A DNA stretch of 64,000 nucleotides. Source: Candidatus Heimdallarchaeum aukensis. GTDB lineage: Archaea > Asgardarchaeota > Heimdallarchaeia > Heimdallarchaeales > Heimdallarchaeaceae. Location: the NCBI GenBank assembly GCA_021513695.1, contig CP084166.1, forward strand, positions 576,001 to 640,000. Reading direction: 5' to 3'. Below the pieces are notes generated by a model. That model saw nothing but the letters and a program-made list of their open reading frames with translations, ran no database searches and was not told the origin of the DNA. A program made the position numbers and the translations under genes. Of the stretch, positions 1,467-43,190 are shown in pieces. Positions within the stretch are counted from its first letter, which is position 1. The number at the start of each line of letters is the position of its first letter.

Positions 1467-1727
1467 CAATTATGAGTGATTCGAATGTTAAGGTTATTAC
1501 CCAGATGTTAAATTCTAGTTAAGCTAGTTATTCAGCTAGTGCAGCTGCTTTAGGAAGCATTAAATCTTTGTTTATTGTTCTTCTTTTAGTTTTCTACTTT
1601 GGCTTAAAGTTTAAATATTCTATATGAATGAAAAAAATCAATTTTACTCTTGTAGGACTTGCAATCATTTTATCTGGATGCGATTAAGAATTTTTTAATA
1701 ATACATATGAATGTATATGTGATTAAG

Positions 1728-1937
1728 ATGGCTAAGAATATAGCAATCTCTGATGAACTCTACAAATTGCTGAAACGTTTAAAACGCCCTGGTGAAAGTT
1801 TTACTGATGTGATTTTAAGATCAATAAAACATTCTACCTCTATAATGGATATTACAGGTAAAAAAACAATACCCCTAGAAGAATGGGAAAAACTCAAGAA
1901 ATTATTTGAAATGAAAGAAATAGAGTTACAAGCGTAA
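1728..1937 (+). CDS. small RHH/CopG-type antitoxin-like protein (VapB-like, COG1753-like); no toxin partner seen
   Basis: Start taken at the internal Met (MAKNIAISDELYKLLKRLKRPGESFTDVILR), a typical N-terminus of archaeal ribbon-helix-helix antitoxins. The upstream in-frame extension looks spurious. Confidence 0.45.
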   Translation: MAKNIAISDELYKLLKRLKRPGESFTDVILRSIKHSTSIMDITGKKTIPLEEWEKLKKLFEMKEIELQA

Positions 1938-2166: not shown

Positions 2167-3501
2167 TTATTTTAGTAATAACTGTAAAGCTGAAATTTGT
2201 TTCTGTTTAGGGTCTATAGTCTTATTTTTAAAGAAAATCCCACTATTTAACATCTCTTCATAGATAATTACTCCCAATATGTGTTTATTTATTGTTTCTG
2301 TTTTTTCGAAACATTTGTCTACTATTGGTTTAATCTCTTTGTAAAGTTCATACTTTCTAATTTCATCAGAACTATAATTGTGAAAATAGTAATCAATAAA
2401 TTGTATTATAATTACTGCATTTTTTTGGTTTAACATTTGATTCTTTTCTAATTTTTCCATTAATCTTCGTTTCAATTGACCTAATTTTGCCTTTATTCGT
2501 TTAGTCTCAACAGTTGATGGAAATTTTATTTGATTTGAAATTTGAATACATTTCTTACTTTTAATTTCGAAGACAAAACAAGATTTAATTGGAGATTCAA
2601 GAAGTTTTGTAACAGAAATTTCTTTTAAGAATTTTTTACCTTTTTCTGATTTTTTTAGTTTATATAATGTGTTTAATAAACTCACTTTATCTGACGAAAA
2701 GTAATTTTCGCCAAAGATTCTTTCCATACTATTTAGATATTGATATAAGGATAAATTTTTAGAACCCATAAAATCTTCTTCAAATAATTCCCAAGAATTT
2801 TCCAAAATTAATAGAAGAAGTTTGTCTATTTCTTCTAATACTAGCTTAGTTATGTACTCTTTATCAAACTTATTTTTATAAATTATTTTTTCTAAATCAA
2901 CTTCTAAGCTGACAGAATAATTGAGAGGGATTTTTTGAATGGCTTTTCTACATATTTCATCAAAACTCTCTTCTAATATTTTATCAACCTTATTCTCATA
3001 AAGTGAAGTGACTTCTAAATTAAATTCAATATTTTGAATGAAAATTCGAAAATCATGATTGAAATCTGAAATATCTCCATAAATAATCTTTGATACATGT
3101 TTATTTTTTAATAATTGGATATAAAGTTGGAACTCAATATATTTACTAAAGTTATTATTTCTAGTAAAACTCCTCATTTTTGATATTATTTTCTTCTGAA
3201 TTCTGCTACTTCTTTCAAACAGATTTATTTCTTTTGTAAGAAGATTTTCTATTTCGTCTAGAATATATTTATACTTTGAAGAATTACGAGTATTTTTATT
3301 TGATAAGGTCTTATTTTCAGTATAAGCTAAATTAGCTATGTTAAAAAAAATATTATGATTATAATGTTTTATAGGTACATCAACATCAGAAAAAACTCTA
3401 TCCAAACTTGGATATTTTATTATCACATCTTTTGCCTTTGTAATAAATTCATTTCGATATAACTTATCATTTTTTTTACCGCAATATGAAGAAACAACCA
3501 T
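2167..3501 (-). CDS. hypothetical protein (444 aa, Lys/Asn-rich, no recognisable motif)
   Basis: Long uninterrupted ORF in very AT-rich DNA between the antitoxin and hsdR; no Walker, nuclease or HTH motif recognised. Confidence 0.5.
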   Translation of the reverse strand: MVVSSYCGKKNDKLYRNEFITKAKDVIIKYPSLDRVFSDVDVPIKHYNHNIFFNIANLAYTENKTLSNKNTRNSSKYKYILDEIENLLTKEINLFERSSRIQKKIISKMRSFTRNNNFSKYIEFQLYIQLLKNKHVSKIIYGDISDFNHDFRIFIQNIEFNLEVTSLYENKVDKILEESFDEICRKAIQKIPLNYSVSLEVDLEKIIYKNKFDKEYITKLVLEEIDKLLLLILENSWELFEEDFMGSKNLSLYQYLNSMERIFGENYFSSDKVSLLNTLYKLKKSEKGKKFLKEISVTKLLESPIKSCFVFEIKSKKCIQISNQIKFPSTVETKRIKAKLGQLKRRLMEKLEKNQMLNQKNAVIIIQFIDYYFHNYSSDEIRKYELYKEIKPIVDKCFEKTETINKHILGVIIYEEMLNSGIFFKNKTIDPKQKQISALQLLLK

Positions 3502-3645
3502 ATAACCACTTTATACATCTATTTTCTTGATAACTACTGTTTAAAACTTTACTAAAAATGTTTCAAAAGTTTCATGTAGTTATTAAATACTGAAATTTTA
3601 TTTTTTTGAATTTATTAGAAAAAATGAATATGTAAGAGAAATTAT

Positions 3646-4056
3646 TTATTTTCTATTGTATTTTTCTGTTAGCATTCTTTTTAACCACAAATTTAGGAAT
3701 GAATTTAGTGAATCTCTACTTTCAGTATCTACCATGCTTTTTGATGGATAAACAACACTAAACAAATACTGATCTTTATAAGATAAAACTTCTGCAATTT
3801 TTTTTAATGAATCTATACGAATTACTACCTCTGGGTCAGGAACCAAATCATCATTTTGTAAAAAATAGTGACCCATTGATAGTATCATCTCGCTTTCATC
3901 ACGAGATAAAATACTAATATGTAACTCCATCAAATTTCCAGAATACAAAATTAGTTTTTCTTCAATTTCTTCAACATTTGGAATTAATTTCATCAAGAGG
4001 TCATAGTTTTTATGAAAGATAGTTTCAATTGTTGTAATTATCTGTTTATCTGACAC
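3646..4056 (-). CDS. hypothetical protein (136 aa)
   Basis: ORF directly upstream (same strand) of the 444-aa unknown and downstream of hsdR; no motif recognised. Confidence 0.4.
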   Translation of the reverse strand: MSDKQIITTIETIFHKNYDLLMKLIPNVEEIEEKLILYSGNLMELHISILSRDESEMILSMGHYFLQNDDLVPDPEVVIRIDSLKKIAEVLSYKDQYLFSVVYPSKSMVDTESRDSLNSFLNLWLKRMLTEKYNRK

Positions 4057-4116: not shown

Positions 4117-7100
4117 TTACACCGCTGTTGCCCACTCTTCACCAAACAACTGTGCTTGCTCCATTATTAATTTAATCGCATTAGGAGTTTGATCTGGTGG
4201 ATATTTATACTTTCGCAATAGTTTACGAATCTCAATACGCATGCGAGCTTGAACACTTTTTCTTACTGTGAAATCAATTGTAGCAGAATTTCGAACCTTA
4301 GCAACTAACTCTTTTGCTATTTTCTTTAATGTTTCATCACCCATTTCTCTTACAGCACTTTCATTTGTAGCTAAAGCATCATAAAAAGCAACTTCATCAT
4401 CATTTAATCCAAGTTCTTCTCCCTTTTTGAAAGCTTTTTGCATATCTTTCGCTAATTGAATCAATTCCTCTAAAATTGCAGCAGAAGCTATTGTACGATT
4501 GATATATTTGTTAATAGATTTCTGAAGTAATTCCTCAAAAGAACGAGATTGAACTAAATTCTTTTTAGCTCTAGAACGAATTTGATCCTTCAACAATTTA
4601 TTTAAAACCTCAACAGCTAAATTCTTTTGTTTTAATCCTCTAACTTCTTCAAGAAATTTATCAGAAAGAATAGAAATTTCTGGTTTATCCAATCCTGCTG
4701 CAGAAAAAATGTCTATAACATCTTCTGAAATAACAGCTCTAGAGATTAATTGTCTAATTGCATAATCAACTCTTTCTTTACGTTCTTTGGAAGGAGTAGT
4801 AGCTTTTACAAAACCAGCACGTACAGCTTGGAAAAAAGCTAAATCATCTCGAATAGCTAAAGCTTCTTCATGAGGAATAGCAAGAGAAAAGGCTTTATTT
4901 AGTGCTGAAAGGTTATCTAAAAACCTTTTTTTAGCACTTTCTGGAGTTTCATTAGGTAAATTAAGAATATGTTCCATAGCAGCAGGAAGTAATTGTAATC
5001 TTTGTAAAGCACTTCCTGTTTTAAACAAAGAATAATCAAAATTGTAAAACATATCTGAAACAATTTCATAATATGTTTTCATTAATTCTACAGCTTTTTC
5101 TTGAGGAATAGCTGTTTGTTCTCTTGACTCTACATTAGAATACCTAGATAATGCTTGCTTAAGAAAATAACCTATACCAATATAATCGACAATAAGACCT
5201 CCAGGTTTATCTTTATATACTCTATTTACTCTAGCTATCGCTTGCATTAAATTGTGTCCTTGCATTGGCTTATCTACATACATTGTATGCATACTAGGCA
5301 CATTAAAACCTGTTAACCACATATCTCTTACAATAACAAGTTTAAGTTCGTCCTCAGGATCTTTCATTCGATTTTCAATAATTTTTCTTTTTCTTTTAGG
5401 CCTAATGTGTGAACGCAATAATTGATCATCAGCAGCAGAACCGCTAATTACAACTTTAATGAAACCTTTTTGATCATCATTAGAATGCCACTCAGGCCTT
5501 AGTTTTATTATTTCATTATACAATAAAGCACAAATCCTGCGAGACATACAAACAATCATACCCTTTCCATCTATAATCTCAAGTCTTTTTTCAAAATGAT
5601 TTACAATATCCTCAGCTACTTCACGTAACCTATCGGGATCAGAAACAAGCCTTTCGACTCTTGACCACTTAGATTTCAATTTTTCTCGAGCATATTCTTC
5701 TTCATCTTCTGTGATTTCATCAAATTCTTCATCGATTTGACCCTTCAATTCTTCATTAAACTTAATTTTAACTAACCTTGATTCATAATAAATAGGAACA
5801 GTAGTTTTATCTCTTATTGCTTGTGAAATATCATAAATGCTAATATAATTACCAAAAACATGAATCGTATTTCTGTCGACAAGTTCTACAGGAGTAGCAG
5901 TAAAAGCAATAAAAGAAGCATTAGGCAGAGCTTGACGAATATAAGCAGCAAAACCTTCTTTTAATGAACCTTTTTCAGAAAGTTTTTTTCCAAAAGAATA
6001 ATGACTTCTATGAGCCTCATCAGCAATAACAATGATATTCCTCCTCTCAGATAAAAGAGGATATTGTGCATTCTCTTCAGGAAGAAATTTTTGTATTGTA
6101 GTGAAAATTACACCACCACCGGTTGTTTTAAGCAAATCCTCAATATTATCTTTTGTCGCTTCATGATTTTTTGGATTGTACCTCCTTGCTGTGGCTTGAA
6201 TAGAAGTTTGACGAAGAAGATCCCTTGATAAAGTAAAAGTTGTAAAAAGTTGGTCATCTAAATCGTTTCTATCAGTAATAACAACGACAGTAGGATTGTT
6301 AAGTAGCTGGATTAACTTTGCGGTATAAAATAACATTGTAAGACTCTTACCAGAACCTTGAGTATGCCAAACAACACCAATCTTTTGATCACCATCACTT
6401 CCAGTAGCTCGTAAAGTTTCCTTAATAGCACGATTAACAGCATGATATTGATGATAAGCAGCAGATTTCTTGACTATTGTTCTACCATCGTCTTCAAAAG
6501 TAATAAAAAATCTGATGTAATCTAAAAAACGAGAAGGTTCTAAAATACCACGAAATAAAACTTCAAGAGATAAGATTGATTGGTCAGCTAATATCTCTCC
6601 CTCAATAGTGCGCCAGGGAGTAAAACGCTCCCAATTAGCAGATAAACTGCCAGCTTTAGATTCATAACCATCACTAATAACAATTAACTCATTAGTCCTA
6701 AATAAAGAAGGAATTTCTTTTTTATAAGTCTGAATTTGATTATAAGCATCTCTTGTAGTCGTTTCTTCTTTAGATGGGTTCTTAAGCTCAATAACTACTA
6801 AAGGAATACCATTAACAAAGAGAACAATATCAGGTCGGTGATTGTGTTTGTCAGAACCAACACCTTCTATAACAGTAAATTGATTTACAGCTAAAAAATC
6901 ATTATTCTCAGGATTCTCAAAATCAATAACTCGTACTATATCTCCCTTTACACGACCATCATGGTAATAAGAGACTTCTACACCATCAACTAACATTCTA
7001 TGAAAAGAACGATTGTTTGTTAATAAATCAGGAGAATCAATACGGTTGAGTTTCTGCAAAACATCTTCAAGCACTTCTTTAGGTTTATCAGGATTAAGTT

Positions 7101-7272
7101 TATGTAAAGCTGATTTTAGTCTATCTTTAAGAATAATCTCACTATATGATAACCTTTCAGGATTATTTCCTGTTGGTGCAATATCTGGACCAAACTTGGT
7201 ATCATAACCTAATTCTCTTAAAATTTCCATAGATGCTTCTTCTAACTCTTTTTCAGTTATTTTCATAATCAA
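4117..7272 (-). CDS. hsdR: type I restriction enzyme R subunit (SF2 helicase/endonuclease)
   Basis: Helicase motif I WHTQGSGKSLTM, motif II IADEAHRSHY (DEAH), motif III FTATP, motif VI QAIARVNRV; 1051 aa. Overlaps hsdS by 20 bp. Confidence 0.9.
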   Translation of the reverse strand: MIMKITEKELEEASMEILRELGYDTKFGPDIAPTGNNPERLSYSEIILKDRLKSALHKLNPDKPKEVLEDVLQKLNRIDSPDLLTNNRSFHRMLVDGVEVSYYHDGRVKGDIVRVIDFENPENNDFLAVNQFTVIEGVGSDKHNHRPDIVLFVNGIPLVVIELKNPSKEETTTRDAYNQIQTYKKEIPSLFRTNELIVISDGYESKAGSLSANWERFTPWRTIEGEILADQSILSLEVLFRGILEPSRFLDYIRFFITFEDDGRTIVKKSAAYHQYHAVNRAIKETLRATGSDGDQKIGVVWHTQGSGKSLTMLFYTAKLIQLLNNPTVVVITDRNDLDDQLFTTFTLSRDLLRQTSIQATARRYNPKNHEATKDNIEDLLKTTGGGVIFTTIQKFLPEENAQYPLLSERRNIIVIADEAHRSHYSFGKKLSEKGSLKEGFAAYIRQALPNASFIAFTATPVELVDRNTIHVFGNYISIYDISQAIRDKTTVPIYYESRLVKIKFNEELKGQIDEEFDEITEDEEEYAREKLKSKWSRVERLVSDPDRLREVAEDIVNHFEKRLEIIDGKGMIVCMSRRICALLYNEIIKLRPEWHSNDDQKGFIKVVISGSAADDQLLRSHIRPKRKRKIIENRMKDPEDELKLVIVRDMWLTGFNVPSMHTMYVDKPMQGHNLMQAIARVNRVYKDKPGGLIVDYIGIGYFLKQALSRYSNVESREQTAIPQEKAVELMKTYYEIVSDMFYNFDYSLFKTGSALQRLQLLPAAMEHILNLPNETPESAKKRFLDNLSALNKAFSLAIPHEEALAIRDDLAFFQAVRAGFVKATTPSKERKERVDYAIRQLISRAVISEDVIDIFSAAGLDKPEISILSDKFLEEVRGLKQKNLAVEVLNKLLKDQIRSRAKKNLVQSRSFEELLQKSINKYINRTIASAAILEELIQLAKDMQKAFKKGEELGLNDDEVAFYDALATNESAVREMGDETLKKIAKELVAKVRNSATIDFTVRKSVQARMRIEIRKLLRKYKYPPDQTPNAIKLIMEQAQLFGEEWATAV

Positions 7273-7960
7273 TTTCCGCCAAAAATTTTTCTATATTAGT
7301 AATTCGAAGCCTACCTGAGATAAGTTGAGGAAGTAGAATATCTCTTAATTTAATTAAAATATTAATTTCATCCTTATTTTTTCTAATTTTTTCAAAGATT
7401 GGGTCAATTATTTCTCTAAACTTTAGTAAAGTAGTCTTATCAGGTTTTATAATCGGAATCCTAAAAAGGTTACTTTGATTAATTTTTAATTGTACTGCAC
7501 CAGTTATATAAGGTCTAATGTTTATATTCATGAGATGTAACATAACAAATTCTGTACAAAATTCATTTTTTCCTTGTATTACATGAACATGATTATTCGC
7601 CCAAAATTTTCCATGTACATATTGTAAGATGGGTTTTTCATTGTTATCAATAACTGAACCATCTTCTGCCATTAAGAGAAAAATGCCATCAAAAATGTAA
7701 TCATCAATATAGTCTAAAATACTAGCTGCCCCATAATATGGATAAATACCTTTTCTTACCTTTCTTTCTATTTTTGATAAAGGAATTCTTTTTGAATCAT
7801 ATATACTTATGACTTCTTTGAGCGTCCCAACTTCCCATCCTTTTGGTATTTCTTTATCTACTTCCTCATTATATTCAAATTCGCCATCTTTGAAAGGTTC
7901 AAAATCAATAAACCAAGATCTGAAGATAGTTTGGGCTATCTCTTCTAAAACTTTGTTCAT
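7253..7960 (-). CDS. hsdS: type I RM specificity subunit, half-size (central conserved motif + one TRD + C-terminal conserved helix); probably 5'-truncated
   Basis: Begins with the HsdS central conserved block IFRSWFIDFEPF and ends with the C-terminal conserved LRDILLPQLISGRLRI. Only 235 aa versus about 400-450 for two-TRD HsdS. No hsdM upstream; an IS lies 130 bp away. Confidence 0.7.
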   Translation of the reverse strand: MNKVLEEIAQTIFRSWFIDFEPFKDGEFEYNEEVDKEIPKGWEVGTLKEVISIYDSKRIPLSKIERKVRKGIYPYYGAASILDYIDDYIFDGIFLLMAEDGSVIDNNEKPILQYVHGKFWANNHVHVIQGKNEFCTEFVMLHLMNINIRPYITGAVQLKINQSNLFRIPIIKPDKTTLLKFREIIDPIFEKIRKNKDEINILIKLRDILLPQLISGRLRITNIEKFLAEIDYENN

Positions 7961-8092
7961 CTTCTGATTGAGTTCAATTTTTTGATCTATAGAGCTTAAT
8001 AATTTACTAATAAATTTTTGTATTCTTAAATTAGGTATAGGAAGTGGGATATTTTCAATAATTGAGGTATTTAAGGAAGGTCTAGTAGTACC

Positions 8093-8855
8093 GGTAGTGT
8101 CTAGTTTTCTTCCGACAAAAATATTTGTGGGGACTCTAATAGTAAGATATGAACATTCAAAAACTATCTACTCTTTTTAAGAGATGCAGAGTCCCCAAAA
8201 AAATAATAATAAAAGCTATTTATGAATATATTGGTTCAAAGAATGGGTTGAGGACAGTAGCATGGAAGAATGGTTTAACGCATCAAACATTATGGTATTG
8301 GGTAAAGAAGTTCAGGCTCTTTAGGGAAAGTTTACATAGAGTTGTAGCAGAGAGAGGGGGAATACCAGAGATTATAGTAGTAGATGAAACAGAGATTAGG
8401 ACCTCTCAAGGCTCAATATATCTGTGGTTCGCGTTAGATCCTTACAACAAGACTTTACTGGGTTTTAGTATTACTAAAGGACGGAGTAATCTTGAATGTT
8501 TACTAACTTTCCGTTATTGGCTCAAATGTTGGGGTTTTAAGCCTCGTATTGTCGTTACAGATGCAGGAGTATGGTATCCTGTCTTACTTCGTCTAGGTAT
8601 CAAAATCTCCGTTATCAAAGGTGGTTTACGCTCCTATATTGAACGTTTTAATGCTACTCTTAAGAGTTATCGTTGGTTTCATTCTATTCTCCACTGCACT
8701 TGTCCTATCCGTGCCGTCTATGGCTCTACTCATCTTTCTGGTTTTCTTACTCTCTTTATGCTCTATTATAATTTCGTTCGTCCTCATCAGAGCTTAGGAC
8801 ATCCTCCCCTTAGTTCCTTTTTACCTAGGAGGTGGTATAAAAACTAGACACTACC
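8093..8855 (+). mobile_element. IS6-family-like insertion sequence (~763 bp) with 16-bp terminal inverted repeats
   Basis: Left IR ggtagtgtctagtttt (8093..8108) and its perfect reverse complement aaaactagacactacc (8840..8855), flanking a single transposase ORF. No clear target-site duplication. Confidence 0.7.
8149..8847 (+). CDS. DDE transposase, IS6-like
   Basis: 232 aa. VVDETEIR...VVTDAG...RPHQSL blocks resemble IS6/IS26 Tnp (DETY...D...E spacing). The N-terminal 64 aa are repeated at 43001..43195. Confidence 0.75.
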   Translation: MNIQKLSTLFKRCRVPKKIIIKAIYEYIGSKNGLRTVAWKNGLTHQTLWYWVKKFRLFRESLHRVVAERGGIPEIIVVDETEIRTSQGSIYLWFALDPYNKTLLGFSITKGRSNLECLLTFRYWLKCWGFKPRIVVTDAGVWYPVLLRLGIKISVIKGGLRSYIERFNATLKSYRWFHSILHCTCPIRAVYGSTHLSGFLTLFMLYYNFVRPHQSLGHPPLSSFLPRRWYKN

Positions 8856-9122
8856 AGTCAAAAATAGAAAAAAAATATAAAAGGCTTTTCTAAATAACAA
8901 CATTAGTTAAAGTATGTGGATTCTTACTAACAACCTTTGAATATAATTCATTTTTTATTTTTTGAATTATCTTCGCTCTATATTCCTCTTCTTTTTTGAA
9001 TCTAAATTAAACAATATAATTTTGTTCAACAGATAATTTTATATTGGGTTATAACCCATTACCGCCCAGAAGTCTAAAAAATAAAATAAGAGGCGATAAA
9101 AATAGGATATGGATCAGGAAGA

Positions 9123-9524
9123 ATGCGTGGTGGAGGAAGAGGAAGAGGAGGAGGATTTGGATTAGGAGCAGGAGGAGCATGTATTTGTCCAGTGTGTGGT
9201 ACAAAAGCTGCTCATGCAAGAGGGGTACCTTGTTTTCAATCTCGATGCCCACAATGTGGAGCACCAATGACTAGAGCAGAAGCTTATGCCGGCCCCCAAC
9301 CACAGAATAGTAAAAACGTACAAGAAGAGAAAGAATACAAATTTGATACAGCAGCAAAACCGCATATAGACCAATCTAGATGTAAGGGGTGTGCTTTATG
9401 CATTAATAGTTGTCCTTTTAATGTTATTAGAATGGAAAATGGTCATGCAATTATTGATTCTTCACGCTGCAGAAGTTGCGGAGTATGTATTTCTTCTTGT
9501 CCTGAAGGGGCGATAGTTTATTAG
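9123..9524 (+). CDS. Gly/Arg-rich (RGG-like) N-terminus + 4-Cys zinc ribbon + 2x[4Fe-4S] ferredoxin domain protein
   Basis: MRGGGRGRGGGFGLGAGG, then CICPVCG...CPQCG, then two CxxCxxCxxxCP motifs (CKGCALCINSCP, CRSCGVCISSCP). Confidence 0.6.
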   Translation: MRGGGRGRGGGFGLGAGGACICPVCGTKAAHARGVPCFQSRCPQCGAPMTRAEAYAGPQPQNSKNVQEEKEYKFDTAAKPHIDQSRCKGCALCINSCPFNVIRMENGHAIIDSSRCRSCGVCISSCPEGAIVY

Positions 9525-9556: not shown

Positions 9557-9934
9557 TTATATTTTTAGTGGATCAATAATTATACTTTCTTTATCAAAAG
9601 TTGCCAAGTAAAAGTCTTCTGTTAAAGTGAGACAACCAGTTGGACAAATATCTTGACATAGTGCACAGAAGCAACATTTTCCTAAATCTATTTGTGGATA
9701 AGTTTTTGGGTATTTCTCTTTATATTCTTCTTTTACTTCTACCATCTTTATCGCTTTATTTAAACAAATTTTGGCACAAGATCCACAAGAGATGCAGTTA
9801 TCGATGTCAAACTTATGTTTTGCTCTCTCTCTTTCTGATATCTCTACTTTCTCCATTGGAAAAAGAACAGTCATTGGTCTTTTGAACAAATTCTTGAATA
9901 TTTCTGAAATAATACTTAGTTTCATTGTTATCAC
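9557..9934 (-). CDS. NuoI/EchF-like 2x[4Fe-4S] ferredoxin subunit
   Basis: CISCGSCAKIC and CCFCALCQDICP motifs; 125 aa; last gene of a B-C-D-I operon. Confidence 0.8.
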   Translation of the reverse strand: MITMKLSIISEIFKNLFKRPMTVLFPMEKVEISERERAKHKFDIDNCISCGSCAKICLNKAIKMVEVKEEYKEKYPKTYPQIDLGKCCFCALCQDICPTGCLTLTEDFYLATFDKESIIIDPLKI

Positions 9935-9935
9935 C

Positions 9936-11048
9936 TCATCTATCTACATCAGCAGGACATTGGTTTAAACTCCAATAAATAGCAGGGACGTCAGCATAAT
10001 AAGAATCAGTAAGTAAATGCTTTAAAATAGGTATCATGTGAGTAAAAGAAGGTCCTCTGATCTTAACTCTATAAGGAGTCTTTTTTCCTGTAGCAATCAT
10101 ATAAATAGCTCCTTCTCCTCTTGATAGTTCATTACGTGTATAGGTTTCTCCTTTAGCTTTGCGGAAGTGAACAATAGGTTTCATATTAGACGTTTTTACT
10201 TCCCCTTTTGGCATTCTGTCAATTGCTTGCTTAACTATCTTCTTGCTTTCTTCTATTTCTTGCATAGCTATCAAATATCTTGAATAAGCATCTCCTTCAT
10301 CAAAAACTGGAATTTCAAACTCCAATTCATCATAAATTTCATAAGGATCATCTCTTCTAACATCTGAAGCAACCCCGCTAGCCCTTAAAATAGGTCCTGT
10401 TGCACCTAGTTTAATAGCTTCTTCTTTCGTTAACACTCCTACTTCTTTGAATCTTTCCAACCATACAGGATTTTCTTTTTTTGCGAATTTATGCATATAG
10501 TCAATCTTTTCAAATAAAGTAAGAATCTTTTTTTCTGCTTTCTCTGGTAAATCTTTTCTTACTCCTCCAGGGCAGATATATCCAGCTGGATAAAGTCTTC
10601 CTCCAGTAATATAATCGAACACATCTAGCATATAGTCTCTGTATCCCATTGCAACATTAAATCCAGTAGTAAATCCTGTTCCCATTGACATTACAGCGTA
10701 CCATATAAAGTGCGATTGTATTCTTGACAGTTCTGCAAGTATAACTCTGATGTATTTAGCTCTTTCTGGGATATCATAACCCATTAAAGTATCAACAGCT
10801 TCTGCATGGAGAAGATTCCACTGAAGAGGTTCTAAAACACATATTCTATCTGATAATACAGAGTTTTGCATTGGTTCTCTATATTCCATTAACTTCTCAA
10901 AACCCCTATGTAAATATCCTGGATCAACTACAGCTTTCATCACTCTTTCTCCACGAAGCTGAACTCTCACTGAAAAGTTTCCTGAACCAGGGTGAGCTGG
11001 TCCAAAGTACATTTCAAAATCTCCTTGTCTTTCTTCTATTTCAGTCAT
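9936..11048 (-). CDS. NuoD / [NiFe]-hydrogenase large-subunit-like protein with degenerate Ni-Fe ligand motifs
   Basis: 370 aa. N-terminal RICVLE...W where hydrogenases have RxCGxCxxxH; C-terminal NQCPADVDR where hydrogenases have DPCxxCxxH. Only the first Cys of each pair is retained. Confidence 0.8.
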   Translation of the reverse strand: MTEIEERQGDFEMYFGPAHPGSGNFSVRVQLRGERVMKAVVDPGYLHRGFEKLMEYREPMQNSVLSDRICVLEPLQWNLLHAEAVDTLMGYDIPERAKYIRVILAELSRIQSHFIWYAVMSMGTGFTTGFNVAMGYRDYMLDVFDYITGGRLYPAGYICPGGVRKDLPEKAEKKILTLFEKIDYMHKFAKKENPVWLERFKEVGVLTKEEAIKLGATGPILRASGVASDVRRDDPYEIYDELEFEIPVFDEGDAYSRYLIAMQEIEESKKIVKQAIDRMPKGEVKTSNMKPIVHFRKAKGETYTRNELSRGEGAIYMIATGKKTPYRVKIRGPSFTHMIPILKHLLTDSYYADVPAIYWSLNQCPADVDR

Positions 11049-11593
11049 TTTTTCACCTCAAAATAAATATCTTCTCGGGGATTACTTTCATCATAATATT
11101 CTTGTTGTACATATTTTCGCCAGTCGAAGTCCTTTCTAAACGGAGGAGGGCCAGTCCAGTCTTCCAACATTAGTGGAGTAAGATTAACGTTTCCTTCAAA
11201 AATCACGCCATAAAACTCATGGCATTCTCTTTCACATAATTCTGCATTTTTACTCCATAGAGAAGTAACAGAAGATATTGTAGGATTTTCTCTATTTATC
11301 CTTGTTTTTATCGTTAAAAGCATTTTTTCTTTATAGGACCATAAATGGTAAGCAATTTCAAAATTATTCTTTTCAATCCAATCTGTAACACTTATTGTAG
11401 AAAGATGTTCAAAACCCATATCATAAGCAATCGAACAAGCATCTACTATTTCTTTAGGTTCAATAGATACCCAAAGTCTTTTTTTTCTTTGGATATTAAC
11501 CTTCTTGTTTAATTTCTTACTTAAAGCCGTTACAATTTTTTCTTCTTTATCCAAATTATTCTTCTCTTTCTCTACTACACTCATTTTACTCAC
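11045..11593 (-). CDS. NuoC (30 kDa subunit)-like protein
   Basis: 182 aa with the ...ECHEFYGVIFEGNVNLTPLMLEDWTGPPPFRKDFDW block typical of NuoC; 4-bp start/stop overlaps with neighbours. Confidence 0.8.
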   Translation of the reverse strand: MSKMSVVEKEKNNLDKEEKIVTALSKKLNKKVNIQRKKRLWVSIEPKEIVDACSIAYDMGFEHLSTISVTDWIEKNNFEIAYHLWSYKEKMLLTIKTRINRENPTISSVTSLWSKNAELCERECHEFYGVIFEGNVNLTPLMLEDWTGPPPFRKDFDWRKYVQQEYYDESNPREDIYFEVKK

Positions 11594-12030
11594 TCATCCG
11601 GCATTCCATGAACATGTTGAACTATTTTGAAAACAGCATCAAAAACAGCTTCAGGTCTGGGAGGACAACCAGGAATATACATGGTTACAGGAAGATAATC
11701 TTCAAGCTTCTTAACAGTGTTATATGAATCCCAATACATCCCACCTGTTATTGGACATGAACCCAATGCTAAGACAAACTTTGGATCAGGCATTTGCTCA
11801 TAAATCTTTTGTGCTCTCTTCATTGATTTTGGTGTCTGAAAACCAGCAATAAACAACACATCAGCCTTTCTTGGTGAATTAACTGTTATCATTCCAAAAC
11901 GTTCCATATCCCATCTTGAACCTACAACTGGAACAAGTTCAGTAAATCCACAAGAGTTAAACCAATTAAAAACCCAAATAGCTTTTACAAAATATTTCAT
12001 CACAGTTTTCTTCTTAACCATCCTTTCCAC
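11590..12030 (-). CDS. NuoB / hydrogenase small-subunit-like [4Fe-4S] protein
   Basis: Motifs GSCPITGG and IPGCPPRP present. The usual tandem CC motif reads SCGFTE, so one of four canonical Cys is missing. Confidence 0.8.
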   Translation of the reverse strand: MERMVKKKTVMKYFVKAIWVFNWFNSCGFTELVPVVGSRWDMERFGMITVNSPRKADVLFIAGFQTPKSMKRAQKIYEQMPDPKFVLALGSCPITGGMYWDSYNTVKKLEDYLPVTMYIPGCPPRPEAVFDAVFKIVQHVHGMPDE

Positions 12031-42298: not shown

Positions 42299-42883
42299 CT
42301 ATTTTCCAAACAACAATCTAATTTTAGTTTCTATTTCTTTAACCTCTTGCTCTTTTCCCTCTTGTGATAAAACTTTTGCGAGAAGTGATAAAATATCCTT
42401 TGAACCAGGGTTTATTTCTATTGCTTTTTTAAGCAAAGTTTCTGCTTTTGCTAGTTCTTTTTTTTCAACTTTTAGTTTAGCTAATTCAAAAAGCGCAGAA
42501 CTGTTTGTACTATCACTTTCTACTGCTTTTGCAAAAGCATTCTCTGCTTCTTCAACATTTTCAAGTTTTAAATAACAGATACCCAAGTTAAACCAAGTTA
42601 TAGTATCGGAATTGTTAATACTGAGAGCCTTGTTATAAAGTTCTAAAGCTTTTTCAAGATCTCCTTTCTTTTCAGTCAAAACTCCTAAGTTAGTTAAACA
42701 TTGAACATAGCTTGGTTCATACTCTAAAGCAGTTTTATAAGCATGAATGGCTTCATCTATTTCTCCTTTTGACTCGAGAATTGCTCCTAGATTAAACCAC
42801 CCAAAAGGATCTGATGGATTTTCTCTTATATATTCCTTAAGATCTTCTATTATTTCGGACATTTCTTCATCCATTTTTATCAC
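42299..42883 (-). CDS. TPR-repeat protein
   Basis: Five 34-aa repeats with W-LG-Y / A-F-A-P signature positions. Confidence 0.65.
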   Translation of the reverse strand: MIKMDEEMSEIIEDLKEYIRENPSDPFGWFNLGAILESKGEIDEAIHAYKTALEYEPSYVQCLTNLGVLTEKKGDLEKALELYNKALSINNSDTITWFNLGICYLKLENVEEAENAFAKAVESDSTNSSALFELAKLKVEKKELAKAETLLKKAIEINPGSKDILSLLAKVLSQEGKEQEVKEIETKIRLLFGK

Positions 42884-42944: not shown

Positions 42945-43190
42945 GGTAGTGTCTAGTTTTCTTCCGACAAAAATATTTGTGGGGACTCTAATAGTAAGAT
43001 ATGAAAACACAAAAACTATCTGCTCTTTTTAAGAGATGCAGAGTCCCCAAAAAAATAATAATAAAAGCTATTTATGAATATATTGGTTCAAAGAATGGTT
43101 TGAAGACAGTAGCATGGAAGAATGGTTTAACGCATCAAACATTATGCTATTGGGTAAAGAAGTTCAGGCTCTTTAGGGAACGTTTAAAAA
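42945..43190 (+). mobile_element. truncated second copy (left end, ~245 bp) of the IS6-like element, including the transposase N-terminal fragment
   Basis: About 95% nucleotide identity to 8093..8340: same left IR ggtagtgtctagtttt and the first 60 transposase codons. Homology ends at about 43190 and there is no right IR. Confidence 0.65.

Follow-up and report, generated by a model that had tools for sequence, protein, structure and literature searches.

A type I restriction-modification (R-M) locus of the Asgard archaeon Candidatus (Ca.) Heimdallarchaeum aukensis retains an intact hsdR gene and the 3' part of hsdS, lacks hsdM, and stops abruptly at a complete insertion sequence (IS). We suggest that this locus is probably the non-functional remnant of an hsdM-hsdS-hsdR operon that was broken by an IS-mediated adjacent deletion. 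It lies in a 64-kb window (the whole stretch of DNA analyzed here, whose coordinates are used throughout) of a 3,081,793-bp (3.08 Mb) chromosome, one of the two circular Heimdallarchaeum genomes described by Wu et al., 2022 (PMC8813620). These genomes contain abundant repeats, with transposase families reaching up to 27 copies, and that of Ca. H. aukensis was closed by scaffolding Illumina contigs across repeats with Nanopore reads (PMC8813620). An earlier note on this DNA had also taken the locus for a nonfunctional, decayed R-M remnant, and its four elements, namely an intact hsdR, a partial hsdS, a missing hsdM and an IS at the break, are all borne out. The principal features are as follows.

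4117-7272, minus strand: hsdR, type I restriction subunit (nuclease and SF2 motor), from domain matches and relatives
7253-8092, minus strand: 3' fragment of hsdS, about 279 codons, from a frame open to the IS and from alignments to full-length HsdS
8093-8855, plus strand: complete IS, 763 bp, from its inverted repeats and the homology bounds of two other copies
8093-8108, plus strand: left inverted repeat (IRL) GGTAGTGTCTAGTTTT, 16 bp, bounded alike in other copies
8840-8855, minus strand: right inverted repeat (IRR), 16 bp, perfect reverse complement of IRL
8149-8847, plus strand: DDE transposase, 232 aa, with IS6 as best NCBIfam model and full length for its family
42945-43186, plus strand: second IS copy, left 242 bp, 96.7% identical, its homology starting exactly at GGTAG

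A truncated hsdS adjoining the insertion sequence

The ATG-initiated open reading frame (ORF) of hsdS spans 7253-7960 on the minus strand and encodes 235 aa with one Methylase_S domain. Upstream of the ATG at 7960, however, the frame stays open to 8092/8095 (minus-strand translation from 8095), and the 45 additional codons read (T)GTTRPSLNTSIIENIPLPIPNLRIQKFISKLLSSIDQKIELNQK, corresponding to the end of the first target recognition domain (TRD1) and then the start of the central conserved region. The fragment opens with the last ~13 codons of TRD1, continues through the central conserved helix and TRD2, and closes with the C-terminal conserved helix, so that TRD2 and those last ~13 residues are all that is left of the recognition domains of a two-TRD HsdS. 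A native start codon is lacking, and at the stop the fragment overlaps the beginning of hsdR by 14-20 nt. The break falls between 8092 and 8093, with base 8092 adjoining the IS terminus; because the hsdS frame runs all the way to that terminus, the IS end is itself the breakpoint.

Alignments with full-length proteins locate the missing part. The fragment matches residues 148-436 of the 436-aa HsdS of a related locus (L001, from a Heimdallarchaeota metagenome-assembled genome, MAG), begins at residue 148 when aligned with the M. jannaschii HsdS of solved structure (1YF2), and starts at about position 130-150 in most of the best-scoring full-length PADLOC Specificity_I profiles. From the central region on it is 86% identical in amino acids and 94% in nucleotides to a 407-aa full-length HsdS (P0002, of locus L084), and upstream of the central conserved region the TRD1 sequences of the two differ. 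A differing TRD1 beside a homologous remainder is the usual pattern of TRD shuffling. By these alignments, hsdS is a normal two-TRD gene that was cut within TRD1, at codon ~148, by the terminus of the IS.

The earlier note had described a half hsdS consisting of a central block, one TRD and the C-terminal helix, with the IS 130 bp from its 5' end. The single TRD holds, and the end of TRD1 is present as well; the coding remnant directly adjoins the IS, and what looked like a half gene is a truncated full-size gene that matches residues ~148 to the end of full-length HsdS. A native half-size HsdS was considered and rejected, as the open frame continues through TRD1-end sequence to the IS. Nor are the marks of a functional half-HsdS present: there is no start of its own, hsdM is absent, and the S proteins of the closest relatives are full-size (407-436 aa).

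A 100% identical protein of 289 aa (P0001) is annotated at NCBI as 'restriction endonuclease subunit S' of Ca. H. aukensis, with an annotated start inside the left end of the IS (window 8093-8122, minus strand; MFVGRKLDT...). The product as annotated thus joins IS and hsdS sequence in a chimera, and it carries no flag as a partial gene.

An intact hsdR

The hsdR gene is a single unbroken ORF encoding 1051 aa from a TTG start, or 1049 aa if the ATG at 7266 is used; a 1049-aa product is called identically on a short-read contig (L081) in the Logan collection, and the HsdR proteins of two intact relatives (L092 and L097) are likewise 1049 aa. Pfam matches comprise HSDR_N, SWI2_SNF2/ResIII, T1R_D3-like and T1RH-like_C domains. 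The protein scores 617 bits against TIGR00348 hsdR (cutoff 284.55), and residues 2-1046 match the PADLOC REase_I profile of 1029 positions. Its translation contains the nuclease motifs PD...ELK (RPDIVLFVNGIPLVVIELK) and QIQTY (QxxxY), and the helicase motifs GSGKS, DEAH, FTATP and QAIARVNR, so that both the PD-(D/E)XK nuclease and the SF2 ATPase motor of HsdR are present. The previous description of hsdR as intact with all SF2 motifs thus agrees with the full-length ORF, the complete domain set and the helicase motifs found here. Among the matches listed, the only close relative is the HsdR of another Heimdallarchaeote (L001; 80% identity in an end-to-end alignment over 1049 aa), and the next best are those of bacteria (55%).

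The missing hsdM

Searches with tblastn, using the HsdM proteins of L001, L084, L091 (a further HsdM source) and L092, found no HsdM-like coding sequence in the 64-kb window, in line with the earlier observation that the expected hsdM is missing; no HsdM, the gamma-class N6-adenine methyltransferase, is encoded beside S and R. The 5' part of hsdS (~147 codons) was likewise not found elsewhere in the window by tblastn with related proteins. None of the 120 best relatives of the L001 HsdM, at 60% identity or more, is located on the source chromosome. Three close HsdM matches were present in Logan only, and they come from DRR463592, SRR19174375 and SRR14865928, with none from the Ca. H. aukensis short-read samples SRR15988954 and SRR15988959. 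The earlier suggestion of a solitary R/S pair that uses an M subunit encoded elsewhere therefore receives no support from these searches of the best HsdM relatives.

Complete operons in relatives

Four loci with related R-M genes, L001, L084, L092 and L097, show the intact arrangement, with hsdM, hsdS and hsdR in that order. L001 encodes an HsdM of 528 aa, the 436-aa HsdS, one extra ORF and HsdR. L084, a 2989-bp JGI contig, holds a partial hsdM, hsdS (407 aa) and a partial hsdR as overlapping genes, and is 94.2% identical in nucleotides to window positions 7990-6471. L092 and L097 both have hsdM, hsdS (425 aa) and hsdR (1049 aa).

Two further ORFs were seen in these loci. The extra ORF of L001 (9025-10020), between hsdS and hsdR, encodes 331 aa and is found in neither the window nor L084, L092 or L097. 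Just 3' of hsdR in L092, an antisense ORF of 91 aa (6480-6755, minus strand) resembles the C-terminal conserved part of HsdS, with 51% identity over 65 aa to the hsdS fragment of the window; it may serve recombination as a spare piece of hsdS, or it may be a further remnant.

The insertion sequence at the break

The inverted repeats of the IS are perfect over 16 bp and have GG tips, and its transposase gene is oriented away from hsdS and hsdR. A copy in Ca. H. endolithica (L090), whose transposase is 97% identical and is labeled 'hypothetical' at NCBI, has homology that starts exactly at 8093 and ends at 8854/8855. As the sister-species copy is bounded at the same bases, the IS ends are real and not a chance match. 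Sixteen transposase homologs were detectable; the full-length ones have 231-232 aa, showing that the 232-aa transposase of the window is full length, and the four whose source is named are all from Heimdallarchaeaceae. With perfect repeats, a full-length ORF and matching ends in the sister species, the element is intact, as had been noted before.

A second copy in the window comprises the left inverted repeat and the first ~60 transposase codons and stops abruptly at 43186. It is intergenic, between a TPR-like gene (42299-42883, minus strand) and a gene for an 856-aa protein, and shows that the IS is multi-copy in the Ca. H. aukensis genome.

Members of the IS6 family are 700-890 bp long, with one transposase ORF and 8-bp target duplications (PMC7986276). 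The family criterion applied here further includes terminal inverted repeats of 15-20 bp with GG tips and cTGTt and caaa motifs. The element resembles IS6/IS26 in its length of 763 bp, its single DDE ORF of 232 aa, its short perfect inverted repeats with a GG tip and TGT core, and its presence in more than one copy. IS6 is also the best NCBIfam model for the transposase, and in a tblastn search of a plasmid collection every listed match was annotated as an IS6-family transposase. The DET, VVTDAG, YIERFNATLK and YNFxRPHQSL motifs align with ISHbo1 and ISCpe7, as do the DDE residues and a K seven residues past the E. Unlike IS6, however, the transposase scores 49 bits where the cutoff is 125, those plasmid matches are at 25-27% identity, the inverted repeat has no caaa motif, and the target duplications of two relatives are of 9 bp in place of 8. 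These duplications are GTATGTTGA in L094 (element at 1437-2220) and (A)GATTAGTGC, of 9-10 bp, in the Ca. H. endolithica copy (2930-3716). The relationship to IS6 appears from these matches to be real but distant, and the former label 'IS6-like' holds in this distant sense only; the element may represent an IS group of its own, confined to Heimdallarchaeaceae, duplicating 9 bp of target and lying outside IS6 proper.

The copy in the window has no target duplication, its left flank being agtagtacc and its right flank agtcaaaaa.

A 17-nt inverted repeat within the IS (8121-8137 and 8188-8204, 88% complementary) has the transposase start codon (8149) between its arms. Folded into a hairpin, it could hide the initiation site on read-through transcripts from translation, a device found in other IS elements.

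A model for the origin of the locus

The absence of a target duplication bears on how the junction formed. Simple insertions in relatives have 9-bp duplications and the window copy has none, which indicates that the event brought together two flanks formerly apart; a simple insertion therefore cannot account for the structure. Nor does the non-coding DNA to the right of the IS (8856-9122) contain a 5' part of hsdS, an hsdM remnant or a 9-bp repeat of the left flank.

In the proposed model, the starting state would be a complete type I operon, hsdM-hsdS-hsdR, in Ca. H. aukensis. The event that most likely followed, as read from the junction, is an IS-mediated adjacent deletion, which could have proceeded either by intramolecular replicative transposition in 'cis', as described for IS6/IS26 (PMC7986276), or by recombination of two IS copies in direct orientation; both routes would leave a single IS copy and no target-site duplication. 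A junction of this kind, without target duplication, is what intramolecular replicative transposition of IS6/IS26 elements produces, which makes it compatible with that route without proving it. The deletion would have removed at least about 2 kb, comprising hsdM and roughly 440 nt of hsdS, and the upstream region of the operon would also have gone. The left terminus of the IS is now fused to hsdS codon ~148 and the right terminus to unrelated intergenic DNA. What remains is an N-terminally truncated HsdS without its own start or promoter, followed by an intact, translationally coupled hsdR.

The remnant looks young. Neither hsdS (279 codons) nor hsdR (1051 codons) contains a stop or a frameshift. 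When changes in hsdR codons 1-265 were polarized with L001, 8 synonymous and 6 non-synonymous changes fell on the window branch and 10 and 9 on the L084 branch; at these small numbers, the window lineage has no excess of non-synonymous change that would signal relaxed selection. Both observations suggest that the event was recent.

The composition of a type I enzyme is R2M2S1; DNA binding takes S and M together, and HsdR has no activity away from the M2S core (PMC3874165). With hsdM absent and hsdS short of its first ~147 codons, an M2S core cannot be made from this locus, and since HsdR depends on that core, the locus is most likely non-functional. By this established type I biochemistry it would most likely neither methylate nor restrict and be a harmless remnant. 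Because HsdR acts only on the M2S core, a type I system that loses M before R does no harm.

Several points weigh against this interpretation. The junction is observed, whereas the deletion mechanism is deduced from the junction alone. Short-read contigs break at both ends of the IS (L081 stops within 29 nt inside its left end, L082 stops 27 nt inside its right end, and L083 begins 14 nt past the right end), so that the join across the IS rests on the published long-read scaffolded assembly. The state of this exact locus before the deletion was recovered in no strain. Look-ups of the exact protein encoded by the adjacent ferredoxin-like gene returned same-strain contigs only, ending 27 nt inside the IS or 14 nt beyond it. 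A metagenome scan with the NuoD-like neighbor found five loci, of which only L087 (79% identity) extends past the ferredoxin genes, and this nearest usable relative has no synteny beyond the adjacent ferredoxin gene. An intact hsdR and a stop-free hsdS fragment are also to be expected if the genes are still in use. Finally, a divergent hsdM, below about 60% identity, may exist elsewhere in the 3.08-Mb genome.

Alternative explanations

Of the alternatives, the one that fares best, though we consider it improbable, is that the locus was split by an IS-mediated inversion, in which hsdM and the 5' part of hsdS moved elsewhere beside a second IS copy and nothing was deleted. Such an inversion could arise by intramolecular 'trans' transposition or by recombination between two inverted IS copies. 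The lack of a target duplication fits an inversion as well as a deletion, and the IS is multi-copy, with a partial copy at 42945-43186, and transposase families of the Heimdallarchaeum genomes reach up to 27 copies (PMC8813620). A relocated intact hsdM should, however, top the HsdM search, and none of the 120 best matches is on the source chromosome; the only other IS copy in the window is directly oriented and has no hsdS-like or hsdM-like sequence beside it.

Slightly lower in our estimate, and likewise improbable, is a working half-HsdS, in which the truncated protein would dimerize, join HsdR and an HsdM from elsewhere, and confer a new symmetric specificity like that of EcoDXXI-deltaN, a laboratory derivative. 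The IS end would supply a start or promoter, with translation beginning within it or shortly past it. Active precedents are known in EcoDXXI-deltaN (GAAY N5 RTTC, 2[GAAY]), EcoDXXI-deltaC (Tn5) and the natural truncated S of NgoAV (PMC3874165). The fragment keeps the central helix, TRD2 and the C-terminal helix, neither it nor hsdR has inactivating mutations, NCBI annotates the 289-aa ORF that starts inside the IS end, and the ends of bacterial IS6-family elements often provide outward or hybrid promoters (PMC7986276). Every one of these precedents, however, retained hsdM in its operon, and the window has none; no HsdM of at least 60% identity was found on the source chromosome (among the best 120 relatives) or in the checked sample contigs, and subunits exchange only within one family or complementation group (PMC3874165). 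No read-through reaches hsdS from the transposase gene, which is oriented the other way, and to posit an archaeal promoter in the IS end is purely speculative. A half-HsdS of this kind, if it existed, would endow Ca. H. aukensis with a new type I specificity, palindromic in form, and would be a natural archaeal counterpart of the 'macroevolution by transposition' known from EcoDXXI.

Least probable, by a small margin, is an assembly artefact, in which a simple IS insertion in hsdS was joined to the wrong contig across the repeated IS and hsdM is not truly missing: the short-read contigs do end within 29 and 27 nt inside the IS or start 14 nt beyond it, and the Illumina contigs were scaffolded with Nanopore reads for closure (PMC8813620), but hsdM should then remain in the assembly or the samples, where no close match was found in the genome or in SRR15988954 and SRR15988959, and even so the IS would interrupt hsdS and the system would be broken.

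Relation to known systems and significance

The remnant resembles type I operons in what it retains. Its HsdR combines an HSDR_N nuclease, a SWI2/SNF2 motor, domain 3 and a C-terminal helical domain; what is left of HsdS shows the typical arrangement of a TRD between two conserved helices; and gene order and overlapping stop and start codons are those of the intact L084, L092 and L097 loci. It differs from them in lacking hsdM and the hsdS sequence before codon ~148. Among HsdR proteins of solved structure, that of EcoR124I (type IC, PDB 2W00) comes nearest, a distant match to the window protein at 106 bits.

Truncation of hsdS within or next to a TRD is also known from EcoDXXI-deltaC (Tn5), EcoDXXI-deltaN, an EcoR124I deletion mutant and NgoAV, where, as here, one TRD and the conserved helices are left; the window fragment has the deltaN layout. 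Those systems, in contrast, retain hsdM, stay active and have palindromic specificities, whereas the window locus has lost its methylase gene.

The event is of a familiar kind, in which a transposable element destroys an accessory defense operon, and the wealth of such elements in this genome was known before; the locus raises no new biological question. It does provide a concrete example of the abundant Heimdallarchaeum transposable elements eroding accessory defense genes, and one Heimdallarchaeal IS type now has defined ends and a 9-bp target duplication. Its practical use is mainly in annotation, through the 289-aa subunit S whose start is inside an IS end and the sister-species transposase called 'hypothetical'. 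When defense systems of Asgard archaea are counted genome-wide, this locus should be left out of the tally of working type I systems. R-M systems go unmentioned in the genome paper and its supplements (PMC8813620), and the Ca. H. aukensis genome is not listed in the available supplements of two Asgard or archaeal defense surveys.

Neighboring genes

On the far side of the IS lie the following features.

8856-9122, no strand: non-coding right flank of the IS, from its sequence and the lack of a tblastn match
9123-9524, plus strand: ferredoxin-like gene, with Fer4 domains and two 4Fe-4S motifs
9557-12030, minus strand: NuoB/C/D/I-like (group 4 hydrogenase-like) cluster

The ferredoxin-like protein has an unusual N-terminal RGG-rich low-complexity stretch that precedes its Cys pairs.

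Directly 3' of hsdR, at 2167-4056 on the minus strand, are genes for a 136-aa DUF6908/DUF1249 protein and a 444-aa protein. The latter has no Pfam, NCBIfam or PADLOC match, and a PADLOC screen of the neighbors (the 136-aa, 444-aa and VapB-like proteins) gave none. Both genes share the short-read contig L081 with hsdR, and both are absent 3' of hsdR in L001 and L092. Searches across the whole 64 kb with ARAGORN and with Rfam at gathering thresholds detected no tRNA genes or known RNA families, and so no tRNA or other RNA gene that could mark an island boundary. The earlier note had called this stretch an accessory or defense island; an accessory island is plausible, given a GC content that falls to 23-25% at 2-4 kb, where most of the first 20 kb is near 30%, and the single close HsdR relative among the matches listed.

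Farther out, an ORF at 1659-1937 (plus strand; PF02697) encodes a VapB-type antitoxin. The 230 bp downstream contain no ORF of at least 50 aa and hence no PIN-domain toxin gene, and the ORF may be an orphan antitoxin.

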